Assembly (NCBI RefSeq): GCF_055900595.2
Contig: NZ_CM148325.1
Direction: 5' to 3' (one strand)
Length of the DNA: 64,000 nucleotides
Positions 3,852 to 34,390 of the stretch are shown here, piece by piece. Position 1 is the stretch's first letter. Every line of letters begins with the position of its first letter. The notes under the pieces were generated by a model. That model was not told the DNA's origin. It was given only the letters and a program-made list of their open reading frames with translations, and ran no database searches. Position numbers and translations under genes: made by a program.

Positions 3852-5988
3852 GATGCTGGCTTATCAGATTCAGTACGTCGCGCACGCTGTCGAGCATAGG
3901 CGTACCTGGACCATAAATCGCCGCCACGCCGCGCTCCTGCAGGAAGGCGTAATCCTGCGGCGGAATGACGCCACCCGCGACCACGCAGATATCTTCGCGT
4001 CCCCATTTTTTCAGCGCTTCGACCAGTTCCGGGATCAGCGTTTTATGACCGGCAGCCAGTGAAGATGCGCCCACTACGTGAACGTCGTTTTCTACTGCCA
4101 GGCGGGCGATCTCTTCAGGTGTAGAGAACATCGGGCTTAAATCTACGTCGAAACCGAGATCGGAATAGGCGCTGGCGATCACTTTCGCGCCGCGATCGTG
4201 CCCATCCTGGCCCATTTTGGCGATCAGAATGCGCGGGCGACGACCATTGTCGGCAAGGAACTGCTCCGTTTGCGCAACAATGGCATCGAACTCGGAGGCC
4301 GATTTCTCAGACTGATGATAGCTTTGCGCAATCACGCCGGTAACACACTGGCTTGGCACCAGATAACGGTCGAAAGCGGCTTCCAGCGCATCGGAAATTT
4401 CACCCAGGGTGGCGCGAACGCGAGCGGCATTAACAGCGGCAGCCAGCAGGTTTTCGTTATGCTGTGCGGCGTGAGTCAGGGCGTTCAACGCGGCGGTTAC
4501 GGCGGCATCATCACGGGTGGCGCGAATGCGTTCCAGCGAAGCAATTTGCTCGTTACGCACCATCACGTTGTCGATCTCAAGTACATCGGTTTCGTCTTCG
4601 TGATCCAGTTTGTACTTGTTGACACCAACGATGACACGTTTTCCCTGATCGATCAGCGACTGTTCACGCGCTGAGGCTTCTTCGATCATTCGTTTTGGCA
4701 GACCTGCTTCGATCGCTTTCGCCATACCTCCGGCTTCGTTGATCTGTTGGATAATGGCTCTGGCTTGTTTGACGATTTGATCGGTCAGCGATTCAACGTA
4801 ATAGGATCCGGCCAGTGGATCGACGGTGCGGCAGAGTTCTGATTCTTCCTGAATGATGATCTGGGTATTGCGGGCAATGCGTGCTGAGAAATCGGTAGGC
4901 AAACCAAGCGCTTCATCAAAGGCGTTGGTATGCAGTGACTGAGTACCGCCCAGCGTTGCAGCCAGTGCTTCAATGGTGGTGCGGATAACGTTGTTATACG
5001 GATCCTGTTCAGTCAGGCTCCAGCCTGAGGTCTGGCAGTGGGTACGCAGCGCCAGTGATTTCGGATCCTGTGCGCCAAATCCACTGACCGCTTCGCTCCA
5101 TAAATAACGTGCCGCACGCAACATGGCGACGTTCATAAACAGATCCATGCCAATGCCGAAGAAAAACGACAGGCGAGGAGCGAAGTCATCAATTTTCAGC
5201 CCAGCGGAGATTGCTGCTTTGATGTACTCAATCCCATCAGCGAGCGTAAATGCTACCTGCTGCACGCAGTTGGCACCCGCTTCACCCATATGGTAACCGC
5301 TGATACTGATGGTATTAAATCGCGGCATGTTGCCGGAACACCAGGCGATGATGTCTGCGATAATACGCATTGACGGTTTTGGCGGGTAAATATAGGTGTT
5401 GCGGCAAAGATACTCTTTGAGGATATCGTTCTGAATGGTGCCTGTCAGTTTATCGGGCGTAACTCCTTGCTCTTCTGCGGCGACGATATAAAACGCCAGT
5501 ACGGGTAACACTGCGCCATTCATGGTCATCGAAACCGACATTTTATCCAGCGGGATCTGGTCGAACAGGACTTTCATATCTTCCACGGTGTCGATAGCAA
5601 CGCCCGCTTTGCCGACGTCGCCCGCCACGCGCGGGTTATCGGAGTCGTAGCCACGGTGGGTGGCAAGGTCAAACGCAACGGAAAGACCTTTTTGCCCGGC
5701 GGCCAGGTTACGGCGATAAAAAGCGTTAGACTCTTTTGCTGTCGAGAAACCGGCATACTGACGGATAGTCCACGGTTGGGCGGTATACATAGTGGCACGC
5801 GGGCCACGAACGTAGGGTGGCAAACCAGGAAGGGTACCAGTCACTTCCAGATTATCGAGATCGGCTTCAGTATACAGCGGCTTGATGGCGATCCCTTCTG
5901 CGGTTTGCTGAACCAGCGAGTCGACAGTTTTCTCCCGACGACTCAATTCCTTGTTGGCAATCTGTTGCCACTCCTGCACGTTAGACAT
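3844..5988 (-). CDS. scpA: methylmalonyl-CoA mutase (B12-dependent)
   Basis: ORF 3844..6009; ATG at 5986-5988 gives 714 aa beginning [15 protein letters not shown], with a GGAG Shine-Dalgarno upstream. Confidence 0.9.
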
Positions 5989-6191
5989 TATTTGCTCCAT
6001 AAAACGCAATCAAAATGAGGGTATTTGCGCTTACGGTGAGCTTTTTACGTGGGTTTGTCGCCAGCAAAAAAAATGCATCCAGACGTCGTTTTTTGCCGCC
6101 TGAGATTTGTCTATTTTGTGATGTGATTCAAGGAATACAAAAAGAACTGGAGGTGATGCCTGGTATGTATTACCAGGCATTATTTGATGGA

Positions 6192-7085
6192 TTATTCCTG
6201 ACGAAGAACTTTGTGACCATAATCGAGCAACGCATCAGTGACTTTACGCATCATGCGGCTTTCAGGAGCAAAGCGGTGCCAGTAGAGCATCCGGCGTTGA
6301 AATAGCCCTGGCGTTAAGTCAATCAGTTCGCCGCTGGCCAGCTCTTTCTCGATTTGCAGGTGCGGGATCATACAGCAGGTGGTGCCCTGACGAGCAAGTT
6401 GCACGAATGCTTCCGAAGAATTAACGATATGGCACGGTACGCTGCCTGGGGGCAGATCGAAGTTTTGCTGCAAAAAGGCCTGGTGCATATCGTCAAGATG
6501 GTCAAAGGCGACCACAGGTGCTTTCAATAATGCCGAACGCGTTACGCCGTTAGGGAAATATTTTTCGGCAAACGGTTTTGAGCTGACGAACAGATAGTCA
6601 AGCGCACCGAGCTTATCGACAAGACAACTCGGCAGCGCCTGATGTTGAATACTCACCGCGCCGACCACTTCGCCGCGGCGCAGACGTTCCTGAGTGCGGG
6701 TTTCATCTTCTACCTGCAAGTTGAGGCGGATAGGCGAATCAGCTAACACAGGAGCCAGCGCCGGAAGCAACCACGTCGCCAGACTGTCAGCGTTGACCGC
6801 CAGTGAAAGCAGCAGCGGAGTTGAACCGGTTTGTTCATCGCCCAGCCACTCTTCTTCCAGTAACTCCACCTGGCGTAGCAGTGCCAGCAGTTTTTGCCCT
6901 TGTTCCGTCGGGCGCGGCGGTACGGTACGCACCAACAGCGGCTGCCCGAACATATTTTCCAGTTGCTTAATGCGCTGTGAGACGGCTGATTGTGTAATGC
7001 ACAGCTTTTGTGCCGCGCGCTCAAATCCTCGTTCACGTATCACCGCATCCAGTGCCTGTAATGTTCTGTAGTCCGGGCGTTTCAT
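6192..7085 (-). CDS. argP: LysR-family regulator ArgP (IciA)
   Basis: ORF 6192..7151; ATG at 7083-7085 gives 297 aa beginning [28 protein letters not shown], with an HTH near the N-terminus. Confidence 0.9.
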
Positions 7086-7545
7086 TGCTGTTGTCTGCTC
7101 CTGGTAAATGCTTTTTCCTGCACTATGACACAATTTTGCGTCAGGTTGCATATACCGAAGCCGTCGGCGGGTACATTTGTATCAGTGGTTAAACACGCAG
7201 CTTAAAAGATCAGGGATTTGCGCTATTGCATTTCGCTCAGCGAGTTCGCGCCCTGGAGCGGCATACCCAGACCTTTATATGCTTTATTTGCCGGGCGAAA
7301 GGGGATGCCCGCCATTGCGCGATATTTTATGGATGAGTTAACCACGCGGCTTGCCAACGGGGTCTGAATCGCTTTTTTTGTATATACTCGTCATACTTCA
7401 AGTTGCATGTGCTGTGTCTGCGTTCGCTCACCCCAGTCACTTACTTCTGTAAGCTCCTGGGGATTCACTCTCTTGTCGCCTTCCTGCAACTCGAATTATT
7501 TAGAGTATAATGCGAGTGAAATTTCATACCACAGGCGAAACGATC

Positions 7546-8460: not shown

Positions 8461-9693
8461 ATGGCAAAGGTATCGCTGGAGAAAGACAAGATTAAGTTTC
8501 TGCTGGTAGAAGGCGTGCACCAAAAGGCGCTGGAAAGCCTTCGTGCAGCGGGTTACACCAACATCGAATTTCACAAAGGCGCGCTGGATGATGAACAATT
8601 AAAAGAATCCATCCGCGATGCCCACTTCATCGGCCTGCGATCCCGTACCCATCTGACTGAAGACGTGATCAACGCCGCAGAAAAACTGGTCGCTATTGGC
8701 TGTTTCTGTATCGGAACGAACCAGGTTGATCTGGATGCAGCTGCAAAACGCGGGATCCCGGTATTTAACGCACCGTTCTCTAATACGCGCTCTGTTGCGG
8801 AGCTGGTAATTGGCGAACTTCTGCTGCTATTGCGCGGCGTACCGGAAGCCAACGCTAAAGCGCACCGTGGTGTCTGGAACAAGCTGGCAGCTGGCTCTTT
8901 TGAAGCGCGCGGCAAAAAGCTGGGTATCATCGGCTATGGTCATATTGGTACACAGTTGGGCATTCTGGCTGAATCGCTGGGAATGTATGTTTACTTTTAT
9001 GATATTGAAAACAAACTGCCGCTGGGCAACGCCACTCAGGTACAGCATCTTTCTGATCTGCTGAATATGAGCGATGTGGTGAGTTTGCATGTGCCAGAGA
9101 ATCCGTCTACCAAAAATATGATGGGCGCGAAAGAGATTTCGCTAATGAAGCCCGGCTCGTTGCTGATTAATGCCTCGCGCGGAACGGTGGTGGATATTCC
9201 GGCACTGTGTGATGCGCTGGCGAGCAAACACCTGGCAGGTGCGGCAATCGATGTCTTTCCGACGGAACCGGCGACCAACAGCGATCCGTTTACCTCTCCG
9301 CTGTGCGAGTTCGATAACGTCCTTCTGACGCCACATATTGGCGGTTCGACTCAGGAAGCACAGGAGAATATCGGTCTGGAAGTTGCAGGTAAATTAATCA
9401 AGTACTCTGACAATGGCTCAACGCTCTCTGCGGTGAACTTCCCGGAAGTCTCGCTGCCACTGCATGGTGGGCGTCGTCTGATGCACATCCACGAAAACCG
9501 TCCGGGCGTGTTAACTGCGCTGAACAAAATCTTCGCCGAGCAGGGCGTTAACATCGCTGCACAGTATCTGCAAACCTCAGCGCAGATGGGTTATGTGGTT
9601 ATTGATATTGAAGCTGACGAAGACGTTGCCGAAAAAGCGCTGCAGGCAATGAAAGCTATTCCGGGCACCATTCGCGCCCGTCTGCTGTACTGA
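8461..9693 (+). CDS. serA: D-3-phosphoglycerate dehydrogenase
   Basis: 410-aa ORF MAKVSLEKDKIKFLLVEGVHQKALE with a C-terminal ACT domain. Confidence 0.95.
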   Translation: MAKVSLEKDKIKFLLVEGVHQKALESLRAAGYTNIEFHKGALDDEQLKESIRDAHFIGLRSRTHLTEDVINAAEKLVAIGCFCIGTNQVDLDAAAKRGIPVFNAPFSNTRSVAELVIGELLLLLRGVPEANAKAHRGVWNKLAAGSFEARGKKLGIIGYGHIGTQLGILAESLGMYVYFYDIENKLPLGNATQVQHLSDLLNMSDVVSLHVPENPSTKNMMGAKEISLMKPGSLLINASRGTVVDIPALCDALASKHLAGAAIDVFPTEPATNSDPFTSPLCEFDNVLLTPHIGGSTQEAQENIGLEVAGKLIKYSDNGSTLSAVNFPEVSLPLHGGRRLMHIHENRPGVLTALNKIFAEQGVNIAAQYLQTSAQMGYVVIDIEADEDVAEKALQAMKAIPGTIRARLLY

Positions 9694-9715
9694 TCTCCCT
9701 TCTTTAATAATCAAC

Positions 9716-9744
9716 GGGCAAGTCACTGGCTTGCCCGTTTTTTT
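9716..9744 (+). terminator. rho-independent terminator of serA
   Basis: GC stem gggcaagtcactggcttgccc followed by a T7 run. Confidence 0.6.
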
Positions 9745-10455
9745 GTGCACAGAAAACCCCCAGCTAGGCTGGGGGTTCCGGAAAGCTTTCAGCTTTGAGC
9801 CAGTTATTAAAACCCCTTTTGATTTGTTAAAACACCTTGCGGTCTGGCAACTGCAAGTGTCAAACAAGAAATCAAAAGGGGGTCCCAATGGGGGACGAAA
9901 AGAGCTTAGCGCACACCCGCTGGAACTGTAAATATCACATAGTTTTTGCGCCGAAATACCGAAGACTGGCGTTTTACGGAGAGAAGCGTAGGGCGATAGG
10001 CAGTATTTTGAGAAAGCTGTGTGAGTGGAAAAGCGTACGGATTCTGGAAGCAGAGTGCTGCGCAGATCATATCCATATGCTTGTGGAAATCCCACCCAAA
10101 ATGAGCGTATCCGGCTTTATGGGATATCTGAAAGGGAAAAGCAGTCTGATGCTTTACGAGCAGTTTGGGGATTTGAAATTCAAATACAGAAACAGGGAGT
10201 TCTGGTGCCGAGGGTACTATGTCGATACGGTGGGTAAGAACACGGCGAAGATACAGGACTACATAAAGCACCAGCTTGAAGAGGATAAAATGGGGGAGCA
10301 GTTATCGATTCCATATCCGGGCAGCCCGTTTACGGGCCGTAAGTAACGAAGTTGAATGCAAATGTCAGATCGTATGCGCCTGTTAGGGCGCGGCTGGTAA
10401 CAGAGCCTTACAGGCGCATTTGAAAAACCTCCGGCTATGCCGGAGGATATTTATT
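9745..10455 (+). mobile_element. IS200-type insertion sequence (IS200/IS605 family); boundaries approximate
   Basis: Single 152-aa tnpA; perfect palindrome cccccagc-tag-gctggggg at 9757-9775 on the upstream side and two hairpins downstream (about 10374-10420 and 10428-10447); no terminal inverted repeats, as expected for IS200. Confidence 0.7.
9888..10346 (+). CDS. tnpA: IS200 transposase TnpA (Y1 HuH transposase)
   Basis: ATG at 9888 within ORF 9837..10346; protein MGDEKSLAHTRWNCKYHIVFAPKYRR...ADHIHML...RGYYVDTVGKN matches IS200 TnpA, including the HxH motif and the C-terminal tyrosines. Confidence 0.9.
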   Translation: MGDEKSLAHTRWNCKYHIVFAPKYRRLAFYGEKRRAIGSILRKLCEWKSVRILEAECCADHIHMLVEIPPKMSVSGFMGYLKGKSSLMLYEQFGDLKFKYRNREFWCRGYYVDTVGKNTAKIQDYIKHQLEEDKMGEQLSIPYPGSPFTGRK

Positions 10456-10599
10456 ATCCCTTTTCCCGCGCATGTCACTGCCATTTGTAATGCGCTGCAA
10501 TTGCCTTTGCGAGTCTGCTCGAAGAAATAAATCAAAGCCAGATCAATGCGTTGTGCTTATTTAAAGAGAGTTTACGATGGCAGGGCAGCATGGGGCTGT

Positions 10600-10743
10600 A
10601 ACGGTAAAGCCCTCACCGAAGCGAGGGCTTGAAGGAGAAGGGTTATGATGCGACTCGTCATCATACTGATTGTACTGTTACTGATAAGTTTGCCAGCTTA
10701 TTAACAGTCAGTCACAGGGGAGGAGTCATCCTCCCTTACCCTT
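10600..10743 (-). ncRNA. sibC: SibC antisense sRNA (antitoxin of ibsC); ends approximate
   Basis: Minus-strand sigma70-like promoter (TTGACA at 10779-10774, 17-bp spacer, TAATTT at 10756-10751) reading across ibsC; hairpin gccctc-accgaag-cgagggc at about 10611-10630. Confidence 0.5.
10645..10704 (+). CDS. ibsC: type I toxin IbsC (19-aa hydrophobic peptide)
   Basis: atgatgcgactcgtcatcatactgattgtactgttactgataagtttgccagcttattaa encodes MMRLVIILIVLLLISLPAY, preceded by the Shine-Dalgarno gaaggagaag; located between serA and fau as in K-12. Confidence 0.7.
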   Translation: MMRLVIILIVLLLISLPAY

Positions 10744-10804
10744 ACTCACTAAATTAGGTTAAAGAATCAACGATGTCAATCAGGGCGATGCAGGTGTGTC
10801 GCCC

Positions 10805-11353
10805 TTACCACTCCCAGACTTTCGACGGTGTAACCACCGCAGGAAGTGGGATATCCCACTCTTCAACGGGGAGTTTTTCCACCAACTGACAATCATGCGC
10901 ATAACCCACCGGTTGCATTTGATAGCTCTGCCAGTTTTGTAAGGTCCGATCATAAAAACCACCGCCCATTCCCAGGCGCTGACCGTACTCATCAAAGGCG
11001 ACCAGCGGTGTGATCAACACGTCTAATCGGGAAAGGGGTAGCACGTCACGCACATCCAGTTTTGGCTCATGGATCTTCAACCTGTTCATCACCAGTTCGC
11101 TTTGCGGATGGTAATTCAGGAACAGCAAATTACCGGCACTAAAGGGATGCAAAACTGGAAGATATACGCGCTTACCGGCGCGCCAGAGTTGTTCTATGAG
11201 TGGCTGGGTGTCGAGTTCGCCATCAAAAGAGAGGAATACAGCGACCGTATGTGCCATCACCACCGGGGGATACGTCATCATCCGGGTAGCGGCTTGTTGA
11301 CCCATTTCCTGCTGTTGTTCCGGCGTTAACGCACGACGACGTTGCCGAATCAT
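10805..11353 (-). CDS. fau: 5-formyltetrahydrofolate cyclo-ligase
   Basis: ORF 10805..11407; ATG at 11351-11353 gives 182 aa beginning MIRQRRRALTPEQQQEMGQQ; directly downstream of ssrS. Confidence 0.85.
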   Translation of the reverse strand: MIRQRRRALTPEQQQEMGQQAATRMMTYPPVVMAHTVAVFLSFDGELDTQPLIEQLWRAGKRVYLPVLHPFSAGNLLFLNYHPQSELVMNRLKIHEPKLDVRDVLPLSRLDVLITPLVAFDEYGQRLGMGGGFYDRTLQNWQSYQMQPVGYAHDCQLVEKLPVEEWDIPLPAVVTPSKVWEW

Positions 11354-11425: not shown

Positions 11426-11611
11426 AGGGAATCTCCGAGATGCCGCCGCAGGCTGTAACCCTTGAACCCTTGGTTCAAGGTGAATGTGTCGTCACAGTTT
11501 TAAGGCTTCTCGGACGGACCGAGCATGCTCACCAACCGCGGAGCGCCACATTCTTGTGGTATGAAATATCGGCTCAGGGGACTGGCCCGCTTGCGAACAT
11601 CTCAGAGAAAT
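11426..11611 (-). ncRNA. ssrS: 6S RNA
   Basis: Reverse complement begins AUUUCUCUGAGAUGUUCGCAAGCGGGCCAGUCCCCUGAGCC and ends ...CAUCUCGGAGAUUCCCU, matching E. coli 6S RNA; 3' end good to about 2 nt. Confidence 0.92.
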
Positions 11612-21492: not shown

Positions 21493-21591
21493 GCCTGATG
21501 CACCTCGTTTATCAGGCCTACATAGTCTGTGCAATGTATTGAATTTGCACGATCTTGTAGGCTGGATAAGGCGTTCACGCCGCATCCGGCA
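21493..21591. repeat. BIME: two inverted REP units
   Basis: gcctgatgcacctcgtttatcaggcctaca and tgtaggctggataaggcgttcacgccgcatccggca match the REP consensus in opposite orientations. Confidence 0.65.
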
Positions 21592-27712: not shown

Positions 27713-28609
27713 GTGAAACAGGATCTGGCACGCATCGAGCAGTTTCTTGATGCTCTGTGGCTGGAAAAAAATCTGGCTGAAAATACGTTGAACGCATACC
27801 GTCGCGATCTGTCAATGATGGTGGAGTGGTTGCATCACCGCGGGTTGACGCTGGCGACGGCGCAAAGTGACGATTTGCAGGCATTACTGGCAGAACGGCT
27901 GGAGGGTGGGTATAAAGCCACCAGCTCAGCGCGTTTGCTGAGTGCAGTGCGCCGATTGTTCCAGTATCTTTATCGCGAAAAGTTTCGTGAAGACGATCCC
28001 AGCGCGCATCTCGCTTCGCCGAAATTGCCCCAGCGTTTGCCAAAAGATTTAAGCGAAGCGCAGGTCGAACGATTATTACAGGCACCATTAATTGATCAGC
28101 CACTGGAGCTGCGCGATAAAGCCATGCTTGAAGTGTTGTATGCTACCGGGCTGCGAGTCTCTGAACTGGTCGGGCTGACAATGAGTGATATCAGCCTGCG
28201 TCAGGGCGTAGTGCGGGTCATTGGTAAAGGCAACAAAGAACGCCTTGTGCCGTTAGGTGAAGAGGCGGTTTACTGGCTGGAAACTTATCTGGAACACGGG
28301 CGACCGTGGTTGCTAAACGGTGTGTCAATTGACGTGTTGTTTCCCAGCCAGCGCGCGCAGCAGATGACGAGACAAACCTTCTGGCACCGCATTAAACATT
28401 ATGCTGTGCTGGCGGGGATCGACAGCGAAAAGTTGTCACCGCATGTGTTGCGTCACGCCTTTGCCACTCATTTATTAAATCATGGTGCGGATTTACGCGT
28501 GGTTCAGATGCTACTGGGCCACAGCGATCTCTCTACCACGCAAATTTATACGCATGTCGCTACCGAGCGTCTGCGGCAACTTCATCAACAGCATCACCCG
28601 CGGGCGTGA
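27713..28609 (+). CDS. xerD: site-specific tyrosine recombinase XerD
   Basis: 298-aa ORF MKQDLARIEQFLDALWLEKNLAENTLNAYRRDL with the C-terminal catalytic motif HVLRHAFATHLL ... Y. Confidence 0.93.
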   Translation: MKQDLARIEQFLDALWLEKNLAENTLNAYRRDLSMMVEWLHHRGLTLATAQSDDLQALLAERLEGGYKATSSARLLSAVRRLFQYLYREKFREDDPSAHLASPKLPQRLPKDLSEAQVERLLQAPLIDQPLELRDKAMLEVLYATGLRVSELVGLTMSDISLRQGVVRVIGKGNKERLVPLGEEAVYWLETYLEHGRPWLLNGVSIDVLFPSQRAQQMTRQTFWHRIKHYAVLAGIDSEKLSPHVLRHAFATHLLNHGADLRVVQMLLGHSDLSTTQIYTHVATERLRQLHQQHHPRA

Positions 28610-28633
28610 TGTCTGAAAAGAACGGGAAGATTT

Positions 28634-29344
28634 ATGAAGAAAGGTTTTATGTTATTTACGTTGTTGGCGGCGTTTTCAGGCTTTGCTCAGGCGGATGACG
28701 CGGCAATTCAACAAACGTTAGCCAAAATGGGCATCAAAAGCAGTGATATTCAGCCTGCGCCCGTGGCTGGTATGAAGACAGTTCTGACTAACAGCGGTGT
28801 GTTGTACATCACTGATGATGGTAAACATATCATTCAGGGACCAATGTATGACGTTAGCGGAACGACTCCGGTCAATGTCACTAATAAGATGTTGTTAAAG
28901 CAGCTGAACGCGCTTGAAAACGAGATGATCGTTTATAAAGCGCCGCAGGAAAAACACGTCATTACCGTGTTTACTGATATTACCTGTGGTTACTGCCACA
29001 AACTGCATGAGCAAATGGCAGACTACAACGCGCTGGGGATCACCGTGCGTTATCTTGCTTTCCCGCGCCAGGGGCTGGAGAGCCAGGCTGAGCAACAAAT
29101 GAAAGCCATCTGGTGTGCGAAAGATAAAAAGAAAGCATTTGATGATGTGATGGCGGGTAAAGCTGCCACTCCGGCAAGTTGCGATATCGATATTGCCGAT
29201 CATTACGCACTTGGCGTCCAGCTTGGCGTTAGTGGCACTCCGGCAATTGTGCTGAGCAATGGCACACTTGTTCCGGGTTACCAGCCGCCGAAAGAGATGA
29301 AAGAATTCCTCGACGAACACCAAAAAATGACCAGCGGTAAATAA
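28634..29344 (+). CDS. dsbC: periplasmic disulfide isomerase DsbC
   Basis: 236-aa ORF with a signal peptide and the CGYC active site. Confidence 0.93.
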   Translation: MKKGFMLFTLLAAFSGFAQADDAAIQQTLAKMGIKSSDIQPAPVAGMKTVLTNSGVLYITDDGKHIIQGPMYDVSGTTPVNVTNKMLLKQLNALENEMIVYKAPQEKHVITVFTDITCGYCHKLHEQMADYNALGITVRYLAFPRQGLESQAEQQMKAIWCAKDKKKAFDDVMAGKAATPASCDIDIADHYALGVQLGVSGTPAIVLSNGTLVPGYQPPKEMKEFLDEHQKMTSGK

Positions 29345-29349
29345 TTCGC

Positions 29350-31083
29350 GTGAAACAACAGATACAACTTCGTCGCCGTGAAGTCGATGAAACGGCAGAC
29401 TTGCCCGCTGAATTGCCTCCCTTGCTGCGCCGTTTATATGCCAGCCGGGGAGTACGCAGTGCGCAAGAACTGGAACGTAGTGTAAAAGGTATGCTGCCCT
29501 GGCAGCAACTGAGCGGCGTCGAAAAGGCCGTTGAGATCCTTTACAACGCTTTTCGCGAAGGAACGCGGATTATGGTGGTCGGTGACTTCGACGCCGACGG
29601 TGCCACCAGCACGGCTCTAAGCGTGCTGGCGATGCGCTCGCTTGGTTGCAGCAATATCGACTACCTGGTACCAAACCGGTTCGAAGACGGTTACGGCTTA
29701 AGCCCGGAAGTGGTTGATCAGGCCCATGCCCGTGGCGCGCAGTTAATTGTCACGGTGGATAACGGTATTTCCTCCCATGCGGGGGTTGAACACGCTCGCT
29801 CGTTGGGCATTCCGGTTATTGTTACCGATCACCATTTGCCGGGCGAAACATTACCCGCGGCGGAAGCGATCATTAACCCTAACTTGCGCGACTGCAATTT
29901 CCCGTCGAAATCACTGGCAGGCGTGGGGGTGGCGTTTTATTTAATGCTGGCGCTGCGCACCTTTTTGCGTGATCAGGGCTGGTTTGATGAGCGTGGTATC
30001 GCAATTCCTAACCTGGCAGAACTGCTGGATCTGGTCGCATTGGGGACAGTGGCAGACGTCGTGCCGCTGGATGCTAATAATCGCATTCTGACCTGGCAGG
30101 GGATGAGTCGCATCCGTGCCGGAAAGTGCCGTCCAGGGATTAAAGCGCTGCTGGAAGTGGCCAACCGCGATGCGCAAAAACTCGCCGCCAGCGATTTAGG
30201 TTTTGCGCTGGGGCCACGTCTCAATGCTGCCGGGCGACTGGATGATATGTCCGTTGGTGTGGCGCTGTTGCTGTGCGACAACATCGGCGAAGCGCGCGTA
30301 CTGGCAAATGAACTCGATGCGCTAAACCAGACGCGAAAAGAGATCGAACAGGGAATGCAGGTTGAAGCCCTGACCCTGTGCGAGAAACTGGAGCGCAGCC
30401 GCGAGACACTACCCGGCGGGCTGGCAATGTATCACCCGGAATGGCATCAGGGCGTGGTTGGTATTCTGGCTTCGCGTATTAAAGAGCGTTTTCACCGTCC
30501 GGTTATCGCTTTTGCGCCTGCGGGTGACGGTACGCTGAAAGGTTCCGGTCGCTCCATTCAGGGGCTGCATATGCGTGATGCGCTGGAGCGGCTAGACACA
30601 CTCTACCCCGGCATGATGCTGAAATTTGGCGGTCATGCGATGGCGGCAGGCCTGTCGCTGGAAGAGGATAAATTCGAACTCTTTCAGCAACGGTTTGGCG
30701 AACTGGTTACTGAGTGGCTGGACCCTTCGCTATTGCAAGGCGAAGTGGTGTCAGACGGTCCGCTAAGCCCAGCCGAAATGACCATGGAAGTGGCGCAGCT
30801 GCTGCGCGATGCTGGCCCGTGGGGGCAGATGTTCCCGGAGCCGCTGTTTGACGGTCATTTCCGTCTGCTGCAACAGCGACTGGTGGGTGAACGTCATTTG
30901 AAAGTCATGGTCGAACCGGTCGGCGGCGGTCCGCTGCTGGACGGTATTGCTTTTAATGTCGATACCGCCCTCTGGCCGGATAATGGCGTGCGCGAAGTGC
31001 AACTGGCTTACAAGCTGGATATCAACGAGTTTCGTGGCAACCGCAGCCTGCAAATTATCATCGACAATATCTGGCCAATTTAG
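29350..31083 (+). CDS. recJ: single-stranded-DNA-specific exonuclease RecJ
   Basis: 577-aa ORF with GTG start and DHH motifs. Confidence 0.93.
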   Translation: MKQQIQLRRREVDETADLPAELPPLLRRLYASRGVRSAQELERSVKGMLPWQQLSGVEKAVEILYNAFREGTRIMVVGDFDADGATSTALSVLAMRSLGCSNIDYLVPNRFEDGYGLSPEVVDQAHARGAQLIVTVDNGISSHAGVEHARSLGIPVIVTDHHLPGETLPAAEAIINPNLRDCNFPSKSLAGVGVAFYLMLALRTFLRDQGWFDERGIAIPNLAELLDLVALGTVADVVPLDANNRILTWQGMSRIRAGKCRPGIKALLEVANRDAQKLAASDLGFALGPRLNAAGRLDDMSVGVALLLCDNIGEARVLANELDALNQTRKEIEQGMQVEALTLCEKLERSRETLPGGLAMYHPEWHQGVVGILASRIKERFHRPVIAFAPAGDGTLKGSGRSIQGLHMRDALERLDTLYPGMMLKFGGHAMAAGLSLEEDKFELFQQRFGELVTEWLDPSLLQGEVVSDGPLSPAEMTMEVAQLLRDAGPWGQMFPEPLFDGHFRLLQQRLVGERHLKVMVEPVGGGPLLDGIAFNVDTALWPDNGVREVQLAYKLDINEFRGNRSLQIIIDNIWPI

Positions 31084-31173
31084 CGTCATATTATCTATAA
31101 AAAAGAGCGTGGATTCGGTACAATCCCGCTCTTATCACCGCATTTTGACTAGCTCAATAAAAGAAATCAGACC

Positions 31174-32272
31174 ATGTTTGAAATTAATCCGGTAAATAAT
31201 CGCATTCAGGACCTCACGGAACGCTCCGACGTTCTTAGGGGGTATCTTTGACTACGACGCCAAGAAAGAGCGTCTGGAAGAAGTAAACGCCGAGCTGGAA
31301 CAGCCGGATGTCTGGAACGAACCCGAACGCGCACAGGCGCTGGGTAAAGAGCGTTCCTCCCTCGAAGCCGTTGTCGACACCCTCGACCAAATGAAACAGG
31401 GGCTGGAAGATGTTTCTGGTCTGCTGGAGCTGGCTGTAGAAGCTGACGACGAAGAAACCTTTAACGAAGCCGTTACTGAACTCGACGCCCTGGAAGAAAA
31501 ACTGGCGCAGCTTGAGTTCCGTCGTATGTTCTCTGGCGAATATGATAGCGCCGACTGCTACCTCGATATTCAGGCAGGTTCTGGCGGTACGGAAGCACAG
31601 GACTGGGCGAGCATGCTTGAGCGTATGTATCTGCGCTGGGCTGAATCGCGTGGTTTCAAAACTGAAATCATCGAAGAGTCGGAAGGTGAAGTGGCGGGTA
31701 TTAAATCCGTGACTATCAAAATCTCCGGCGATTACGCTTACGGCTGGCTGCGTACTGAAACCGGCGTTCACCGCCTGGTGCGCAAGAGCCCGTTTGACTC
31801 CGGCGGTCGTCGCCACACGTCGTTCAGCTCCGCGTTTGTTTACCCGGAAGTCGATGATGATATCGATATCGAAATCAATCCGGCGGATCTGCGCATCGAC
31901 GTTTATCGCGCATCCGGCGCGGGTGGTCAGCACGTTAACCGTACCGAATCTGCGGTGCGTATTACTCACATCCCAACCGGGATTGTGACCCAATGCCAGA
32001 ACGACCGTTCCCAGCACAAGAACAAAGACCAGGCCATGAAGCAGATGAAAGCGAAGCTTTATGAACTGGAGATGCAGAAGAAAAATGCCGAGAAACAGGC
32101 GATGGAAGATAACAAATCTGACATCGGCTGGGGCAGCCAGATTCGTTCTTATGTCCTTGATGACTCCCGCATTAAAGATCTGCGTACCGGGGTAGAAACT
32201 CGTAACACGCAGGCAGTGCTGGACGGCAGCCTGGATCAATTTATCGAAGCAAGTTTGAAAGCAGGGTTATGA
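31174..32272 (+). CDS. prfB: peptide chain release factor 2, needing a programmed +1 frameshift (codons 1-25 at 31174..31248, then 31250..32272)
   Basis: ATG at 31174 encodes [25 protein letters not shown], then in-frame TGA at 31249-31251 within cttAGGGGGtatCTTTGAC; the +1 frame continues [12 protein letters not shown]... through the GGQ motif to the stop at 32272 (365 aa total). Confidence 0.9.
31237..31252 (+). other. prfB: prfB autoregulatory +1 frameshift site (internal Shine-Dalgarno AGGGGG plus CUU UGA C slippery stop)
   Basis: Sequence AGGGGGTATCTTTGAC read directly. Confidence 0.9.
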
Positions 32273-32281
32273 GGAACCAAC

Positions 32282-33799
32282 ATGTCTGAACAACACGCAC
32301 AGGGCGCTGACGCGGTAGTCGATCTTAACAATGAACTGAAAACGCGTCGTGAGAAGCTGGCGAACCTGCGTGAGCAGGGGATTGCCTTCCCGAACGATTT
32401 CCGTCGCGATCATACCTCTGACCAATTGCACGCAGAATTCGACGGCAAAGAAAACGAAGAACTGGAAGCGCTGAACATCGAAGTTGCCGTTGCTGGCCGC
32501 ATGATGACCCGCCGTATTATGGGTAAAGCGTCTTTCGTTACCCTGCAGGATGTGGGGGGCCGCATTCAGCTGTACGTTGCTCGTGACGATCTGCCGGAAG
32601 GCGTTTACAACGAGCAGTTCAAAAAATGGGACCTCGGCGATATCCTCGGCGCGAAAGGTAAACTGTTCAAAACCAAAACCGGCGAACTGTCTATCCACTG
32701 CACCGAGCTGCGTCTGCTGACCAAAGCACTGCGTCCGCTGCCGGACAAATTCCACGGTTTGCAGGATCAGGAAGCGCGCTATCGTCAGCGTTATCTGGAT
32801 CTCATTTCTAACGATGAATCCCGCAACACCTTTAAAGTGCGTTCGCAGATCCTCTCTGGCATTCGCCAGTTCATGGTGAATCGTGGCTTTATGGAAGTTG
32901 AAACGCCGATGATGCAGGTGATCCCAGGCGGCGCGGCGGCGCGTCCGTTTATCACCCATCACAATGCGCTGGATCTCGACATGTACTTGCGTATCGCGCC
33001 GGAACTGTACCTCAAGCGTCTGGTGGTTGGTGGCTTCGAGCGTGTATTCGAAATCAACCGTAACTTCCGTAACGAAGGTATCTCCGTACGTCATAACCCA
33101 GAGTTCACCATGATGGAACTCTATATGGCTTACGCTGATTACAAAGATCTGATCGAGCTGACCGAATCGCTGTTCCGTACTCTGGCACAGGATATTCTCG
33201 GTAAGACCGAAGTGACCTACGGCGACGTGACGCTGGACTTCGGTAAACCGTTCGAAAAACTGACCATGCGTGAAGCGATCAAGAAATATCGCCCGGAAAC
33301 CGACATGGCGGATCTGGACAACTTCGACTCTGCGAAAGCGATTGCTGAATCTATCGGCATCCACGTTGAGAAGAGCTGGGGTCTGGGCCGTATCGTTACC
33401 GAGATCTTCGAAGAAGTGGCAGAAGCACATCTGATCCAGCCGACCTTCATTACTGAATATCCGGCAGAAGTTTCTCCGCTGGCGCGTCGTAACGACGTTA
33501 ACCCGGAAATCACTGACCGCTTTGAGTTCTTCATTGGTGGTCGTGAAATCGGTAACGGCTTTAGCGAGTTGAATGACGCGGAAGATCAGGCGCAGCGCTT
33601 CCTGGATCAGGTTGCCGCGAAAGACGCAGGCGACGACGAAGCGATGTTCTACGACGAAGATTACGTCACCGCACTGGAACACGGCTTACCGCCGACAGCA
33701 GGTCTGGGAATTGGTATCGACCGTATGGTAATGCTGTTCACCAACAGCCATACCATCCGCGACGTTATTCTGTTCCCGGCGATGCGTCCGGTGAAATAA
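32282..33799 (+). CDS. lysS: lysyl-tRNA synthetase (constitutive)
   Basis: 505-aa [36 protein letters not shown]. Confidence 0.93.
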
Positions 33800-33817
33800 G
33801 CATTACGTTATGCTCAC

Positions 33818-33845
33818 AACCCCGGCAAATGTCGGGGTTTTTTAT
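33818..33845 (+). terminator. rho-independent terminator of prfB-lysS
   Basis: aaccccggcaaatgtcgggg followed by ttttttatt; overlaps the idi stop codon (convergent). Confidence 0.65.
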
Positions 33846-34390
33846 TTAAGCTGGGTAAATGCAGATAATCGTTTTCTGGCTTCGCGATTTGTCGCCTGCA
33901 TCACCATCCACGGACTGAACGCCCACGGCGTGGCATCAATACCGCGTAAAACCGCTGCTAAATCACACCATTGATAATCCATCACTTCATCATCGTTGAT
34001 CTGTAACGCACTGGTCGTGCGTGCGGCAAATACCGGACATACTTCATTTTCTACAATGCCATTCGGATCGGTGGCGCGATAGCGAAAGTCAGGATAGATA
34101 GATTCAGGAGGTGTAATTTCCACGCCAAGCTCATAACGGCAACGGCGGATCACCGCGTCTTCGTTGCTTTCTCCCAGTTGTGGGTGCCCACAAACCGAGT
34201 TAGTCCACACGCCCGGCCATGCTTTTTTGCTAAGGGCGCGGCGGGTAACTAATAATTGCCCTTTGGCATTAAACAGCCAGCAGGAGAACGCGAGATGTAA
34301 GAGAGTGTCTGCCGTGTGTGCGGCATACTTTTCCAGCGTACCCGTGGGAACTCCCTGTGCATTCAATAAAATGACGTGTTCCGTTTGCAT
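33842..34390 (-). CDS. idi: isopentenyl-diphosphate delta-isomerase
   Basis: 182-aa Nudix-fold [28 protein letters not shown]. Confidence 0.9.

Follow-up and report, generated by a model that had tools for sequence, protein, structure and literature searches.

The window, i.e., the whole 64,000-nt stretch of DNA analyzed, contains the gene of release factor 2 (RF2), prfB, at positions 31174–32272 on the plus strand, identified by orthologue annotation and profile matches; these coordinates include both frame segments and the final TGA stop codon. The genes xerD, dsbC, and recJ are located upstream of prfB, while lysS and idi are located downstream; the recJ–prfB–lysS order was kept in every genus compared. 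The lysS gene (32282–33799, plus strand; orthologue annotation) begins 9 nt past the stop codon of prfB, and a GAGGA sequence at 32271–32275 overlaps this stop codon ahead of lysS. A terminator-like hairpin with a T-run was found 3' of lysS (33818–33839). The spacing, together with established knowledge, suggests that prfB and lysS belong to one operon. A promoter scan gave a single weak sigma-70-like match (31034–31061, 9/12) within the 3' end of recJ, fewer matches than shuffled sequences give.

The recJ–prfB spacer contains a strong hairpin of 12 bp with a single bulge (31103–31133), which is located right after the recJ stop codon and has a z-score of about −4 on both strands. Since the A-run lies 5' of it on the plus strand, the T-run expected of a classical terminator is found on the minus strand, from which no gene reads into the hairpin. 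Its sole difference from K-12 (31116) lies in the loop. Downstream of lysS, idi is intact in the window (33842–34390, 182 aa); in RMDEC465, the closest complete genome at prfB, an IS4 insertion was found in this place beside a frameshifted idi pseudogene (5749–7191 of the RMDEC465 locus).

Several other elements were found in the window. A segment of approximately 760 bp (9745–10504), located between serA and ibsC/sibC, is not present in E. coli N96 and matches tnpA of the IS200/IS605 family (IS200C-like); its 5' end carries an Rfam STnc490 match (9755–9878, plus strand). Only 17 of the 5426 complete genomes cover the region 9600–10850 in one piece. Matches at the Rfam gathering level on the minus strand included SIB antitoxin RNA (10629–10779), beside a gene annotated as an Ibs toxin in N96, 6S RNA (ssrS, 11428–11611), and the sRNA ES036/CssrF (21514–21556), the last being barely over its threshold (38.4 versus 37.6 bits). 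With the 25-kb query 20000–44999, the median number of matching places was 21 per E. coli genome; therefore, this region contains short dispersed repeats, probably of the REP/BIME type. Self-BLAST of the 64 kb window revealed no internal repeats.

Recoding site of prfB and its joined product

The prfB gene starts with ATG at 31174, and its first 25 sense codons are followed by an in-frame TGA; this frame-0 segment (31174–31251, plus strand, as are all the elements described below) was evident from the ORF list and its translation. An internal Shine–Dalgarno-like sequence, AGGGGG (31237–31242), is located 3 nt 5' of the CTT codon and is the same in six enterobacterial prfB genes. The spacer codon TAT (Tyr24, 31243–31245) separates them and would occupy the E site once CTT has reached the P site (for its role, see PMC12421855 and PMC2377451). 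The putative slippery sequence CTT T (31246–31249) is formed by the Leu25 codon CTT (31246–31248) and the first base of the stop codon, in agreement with the mechanism described in PMC12421855. The in-frame stop codon TGA, specific for RF2, is codon 26 (31249–31251) and, with the following C (31252), gives the weak context TGAC at 31249–31252 (PMC12421855). T31249 is the base that would be skipped by the +1 shift. The +1-frame segment (31250–32272) begins with GAC (Asp26), comprises codons 26–365, and ends with the TGA stop codon at 32270–32272. The first-pass annotation of this DNA had reported an in-frame UGA at codon 26, AGGGGG, and CUU UGA C; all three were confirmed, each at its position.

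Joining of 31174–31248 with 31250–32272 yielded a protein of 365 aa, with Ala246 in the context YRASGAGGQ. Two motifs were recognized in its sequence: the SPF tripeptide (residues 205–207, 31787–31795) and the GGQ motif of peptidyl-tRNA hydrolysis (residues 250–252, 31922–31930). The SPF tripeptide is the motif by which RF2 recognizes stop codons. The ORF list contained no single ORF across the whole prfB: only the 25-aa frame-0 ORF and a +1-frame ORF ending at 32272 were present, the latter being 293 aa when counted from the ATG at 31391 (Met73). The earlier statement that a continuous single-frame RF2 ORF is missing thus held true for this list.

The joined product matched the NCBIfam model TIGR00020 (prfB) with 525.7 bits at a cutoff of 370, while RF1 models gave 304–306 bits, under their cutoffs of 400–423. 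Pfam domains PCRF (PF03462, residues 31–219) and RF-1 (PF00472, residues 228–337) were found. Alignment with the chains of E. coli RF2 in PDB (1gqe, 1ml5, and many ribosome complexes) covered residues 1–365 with an E-value of about 1e-240 and was unbroken over the frame junction at residues 25/26; the check proposed in the first-pass annotation, alignment to RF2 of the two frames joined at 31248/31250, thereby gave an end-to-end match. The residues of the SPF and GGQ motifs were the same as in the solved E. coli RF2. Given the identity of 364–365 of 365 residues with the biochemically studied E. coli RF2, the protein would be expected to promote release at UGA and UAA. Of the 5426 complete E. 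coli genomes, 5425 contained a single copy of the prfB locus. RefSeq gives the coding sequence as a join of two pieces, with the note 'programmed frameshift', in EC600 (a K-12 derivative), RMDEC465, and N96.

Conservation of the site and the origin of the frame break

The pattern AGGGGGNNNCTTTGAC occurred once in the 64 kb window. When one mismatch was allowed, 0.12 chance matches were expected, and at least one match was found in 11 of 100 shuffles; therefore, the rarity of the motif alone is weak evidence, and the case for a real site is based on its position and conservation. The motif is placed exactly at the frame change between the two halves of the RF2 homologue. The 16-nt cassette AGGGGGTATCTTTGAC (AGGGGG-TAT-CTT-TGA-C) is identical in K-12, Escherichia marmotae, Salmonella, Klebsiella, and Enterobacter; in the six enterobacterial sequences, the invariant run extends over 18 nt (31237–31254), with synonymous sites varying on either side of it. 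The autoregulatory +1 frameshift of E. coli prfB was reportedly described by Craigen and Caskey in 1986 and by Weiss et al. in 1987. The window locus resembles this known system in the cassette, in the stop at codon 26, and in the recJ–prfB–lysS context; the first 255 nt of K-12 prfB are the same as in the window gene, with no difference at the recoding site. The frameshift of E. coli prfB is surveyed in PMC12421855.

We compared the codons of prfB in the joined frame. Relative to K-12, there were 29 nucleotide changes in 28 codons, 26 synonymous and 2 replacements; the differing codons were 71 synonymous and 2 replacement with E. marmotae and 121 synonymous and 16 replacement with Salmonella. 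Within codons 26–85, every substitution relative to E. marmotae was synonymous in the +1 frame. This pattern indicates purifying selection on prfB in the joined frame.

A frame break of this kind might be a sequencing or assembly indel, or a mark of a pseudogene, with no recoding involved. A naive ORF scan indeed gives the 25-aa ORF and the 293-aa ATG-initiated ORF alone, and a damaged prfB is annotated as a pseudogene in the complete genome of NIPH17_0036. However, the same one-base offset was found at the same position in K-12, RMDEC465, N96, E. marmotae, Salmonella, Klebsiella, and Enterobacter, and the draft assembly GCA_049661685.1, which differs from the window by 3 SNPs in 21 kb, has an identical frame break. 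In the joined frame, the great majority of substitutions are synonymous, and RF2 was reported to be essential for growth in LB (PMC12956098). An indel or a pseudogene is effectively refuted as the source of the frame break. Two separate products made without a frameshift, a 25-aa peptide and a truncated RF2 starting from the internal ATG at 31391 (Met73), would also agree with the ORF list, in which the 293-aa ORF runs from this ATG to 32272. This scheme has next to no probability either: residues 26–72 (31250–31390, +1 frame), encoded upstream of the ATG, align perfectly with the solved full-length RF2, the crystallized form of which is the full-length protein of 365 aa (1gqe, 1ml5). Substitutions in this stretch are all synonymous relative to E. 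marmotae and mostly so relative to Salmonella; therefore, the stretch is translated in the +1 frame.

The prfB gene of NIPH17_0036 (NZ_AP024561.1, 1575–2644) has an internal stop and lacks the C-terminus, with a shorter match of 95.6% identity. Such damage is odd for a gene reported to be essential for growth in LB; an assembly error may be the cause.

We conclude, with a probability of about 0.97, that positions 31174–32272 represent a functional prfB of an Escherichia coli strain, which would be expressed via the canonical autoregulatory +1 programmed ribosomal frameshift; no observation spoke against this reading. Frameshifting is expected in the strain of the window because the sequence of its site is identical to that of the experimentally studied K-12 site. 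The recoding site and the allele were both known before, and the exact protein had been recorded as well.

RF2 allele and strain background

One of the two replacements relative to K-12 concerns residue 246, four residues before GGQ: codon 246 (31910–31912) is GCA (Ala) in the window, while K-12 has ACG (Thr), as does the K-12 derivative EC600. Both the residue and its numbering had been given correctly in the first-pass annotation. We counted alleles in the 5426 complete E. coli genomes using 30-mers centered on codon 246 and Megablast with a 28-nt exact word; a central mismatch in the 30-mer removes the match. The K-12 (Thr246) 30-mer was present in 338 genomes. Sampled records of this 30-mer were mostly named K-12 laboratory strains (MG1655, DH1, DH10B, MC4100, EC600, and EPI300), and some came from animal or human sources. 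The Ala246 30-mer with GCG was found in 3619 genomes and the window's own version with GCA in 868; the Ala246 versions together accounted for at least 4487 of the 5426 genomes, about 600 genomes with other flanking variants being beyond the resolution of the probes. Ala246 is also present in E. marmotae, Salmonella, Klebsiella, and Enterobacter. The description of the allele as non-K-12 is supported by Thr246 in EC600 and by the small number of genomes with the K-12 30-mer; it does not mark any one lineage, Ala246 being the norm of the species. This residue excludes K-12 only and is the normal state in E. coli and other enterobacteria, which for E. coli is also supported by PMC5373646.

Among the complete genomes, E. 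coli EcN_Sk (NZ_CP172017.1), which has a Nissle-like name and a genome of 5.06 Mb, much larger than that of K-12, contained the exact K-12 Thr246 30-mer, which points to a segment derived from K-12, to engineering of the strain, or to an independent origin.

Thr246 of K-12 was reported to lower peptide-release activity and to make RF2 dependent on methylation by PrmC (PMC5373646). The T246A variant of K-12 RF2 was equated with wild-type RF2 from strains B and MRE600 (PMC1849895); the same replacement arose in a laboratory evolution experiment and was described as repairing a defect (PMC12956098). By analogy, the Ala246 protein of the window would be the fully active wild-type form characteristic of E. 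coli B, MRE600, and most natural strains. The RF2-B allele (E. coli B, BL21, MRE600, and most natural isolates; UniProt RF2_ECO27, WP_001701073.1) shares Ala246 with the window protein and is identical to it in 364 of 365 residues, but it has Ala101 instead of Thr101, and codon 246 is GCG in most E. coli instead of GCA. The RF2-K-12 allele (UniProt RF2_ECOLI, WP_010723217.1) has the same frameshift site and is identical in 363 of 365 residues; it combines Thr246 with Ala101, whereas the window protein combines Ala246 with Thr101.

The second replacement relative to K-12, A101T, was missed in the first-pass annotation. Codon 101 (31475–31477) is ACT (Thr) in the window and GCT (Ala) in K-12 and in the closest complete genome; Ala101 was found in all five comparison sequences (K-12, E. 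marmotae, Salmonella, Klebsiella, and Enterobacter). No complete RefSeq E. coli genome among the 5426 contained the 30-mer around Thr101. Nevertheless, the exact 365-aa protein with Thr101 has already been deposited (UniProt A0A2K3TR21_ECOLX, 100% identical to the window protein over 365 aa) and occurs on 306 contigs, and the draft assembly GCA_049661685.1 is 99.986% identical to the window over 21174–42272. These data indicate that Thr101 is not an error but a variant fixed in a lineage that has been sampled before. The absence of Thr101 from K-12, the closest complete genome, the other genera, and all the complete E. coli genomes might speak for a functionally distinct RF2, in which A101T, located in domain 1, alters termination or the frameshift set-point, so that the protein would not be merely RF2-B-like. 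We consider this very unlikely. The replacement of Ala by Thr is conservative, residue 101 is distant from both the SPF and the GGQ motif, and domain 1 was the most variable part in the six-way comparison, with replacements at residues 8, 18, 19, 66, 74, 78, 104, and 105; no phenotype evidence for A101T was found.

Divergence from K-12, which is unusually high and was likewise missed in the first-pass annotation, was 4.5% for xerD, 6.5% for dsbC, 4.2% for recJ, 2.6% for prfB, and 2.9% for lysS. A divergence or import specific to prfB was ruled out, with the neighboring genes at 2.9–6.5%. The neighborhood as a whole (28100–33800, xerD–dsbC–recJ–prfB–lysS) is 2.6–6.5% off K-12, dsbC being the most distant. 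The best complete RefSeq E. coli genome had only 98.9% identity with the window over 25 kb. The background of the window is a divergent lineage that has been sampled for the most part in draft assemblies.

Proposed frameshift mechanism and constraint around the site

The mechanism is known for the identical site of K-12 (PMC12421855), with kinetic detail given in PMC2377451 and PMC6815119; frame shifting, its efficiency, and the higher activity of the Ala246 protein in the strain of the window are expected from the literature. The ribosome would translate 25 codons in frame 0, bringing CUU to the P site and UGA-C to the A site. When RF2 is plentiful, UGA would be recognized and a 25-residue peptide released. 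When RF2 is scarce, the ribosome would pause, and termination by RF2 would compete with a +1 slip (PMC12421855). The slip would be promoted by AGGGGG, located 3 nt upstream and pairing with the anti-Shine–Dalgarno end of 16S rRNA, as well as by the weak UGAC stop context. The peptidyl-tRNA-Leu would then re-pair from CUU to UUU, and GAC would be decoded as codon 26, resulting in the full-length RF2 of 365 aa. In this way, the abundance of RF2 would feed back on its own synthesis.

The conserved region extends beyond the cassette. All 29 nucleotide differences from K-12 fall after gene position 255, and a run of 312 nt (31117–31428), comprising a part of prfB and the adjacent spacer, is without difference, as against a divergence of 3.4% over the remainder of prfB. 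If the first 255 nt had diverged at the rate of this remainder, they should contain about 8.8 differences; the Poisson probability of none is about 1.6e-4. Among the six enterobacterial prfB genes, synonymously variable codons make up 25% of codons 10–48 (approximately 31201–31318) versus 63% of codons 49–365 (permutation p < 5e-5, for an interval chosen after seeing the data and for six sequences only).

RNA structure as the reason for this extended conservation was unsupported: the MFE z-score was −1.30, and 20 of 200 shuffles were as good. None of the 50 pairs predicted by RNAalifold for the six sequences was compensatory, an analysis with little power owing to the low variation. The scan of the whole window at the Rfam gathering threshold identified no curated RNA family over the prfB site, its only matches being STnc490, SIB, 6S, and ES036 at other positions, and the words "synonymous", "secondary structure", and "hairpin" are absent from the text of PMC12421855.

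A constraint wider than the 16-nt cassette could mean that additional, undescribed cis-acting context tunes the frameshift set-point; separately, A101T might alter the behavior of RF2. We regard this proposal as improbable. The candidate context could be a ribosome queueing effect or pairing of the Shine–Dalgarno-like GGGGG with an upstream ACCUC (31211–31215). Codon bias, a tract of recombination, effects of context on frameshifting, and chance are each able to account for the low synonymous variation.

Gene callers blind to recoding would split or truncate the essential prfB gene here; therefore, it should be annotated as a joined coding sequence (31174..31248, 31250..32272). Ala246 points to a strain with a fully active RF2, which would matter for stop-codon readthrough and for the tolerance of prmC, rluD, and prfC mutations. 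It would matter as well for RF1 deletion and genetic-code-expansion work, in which the behavior of K-12 differs (PMC5373646, PMC10521639).
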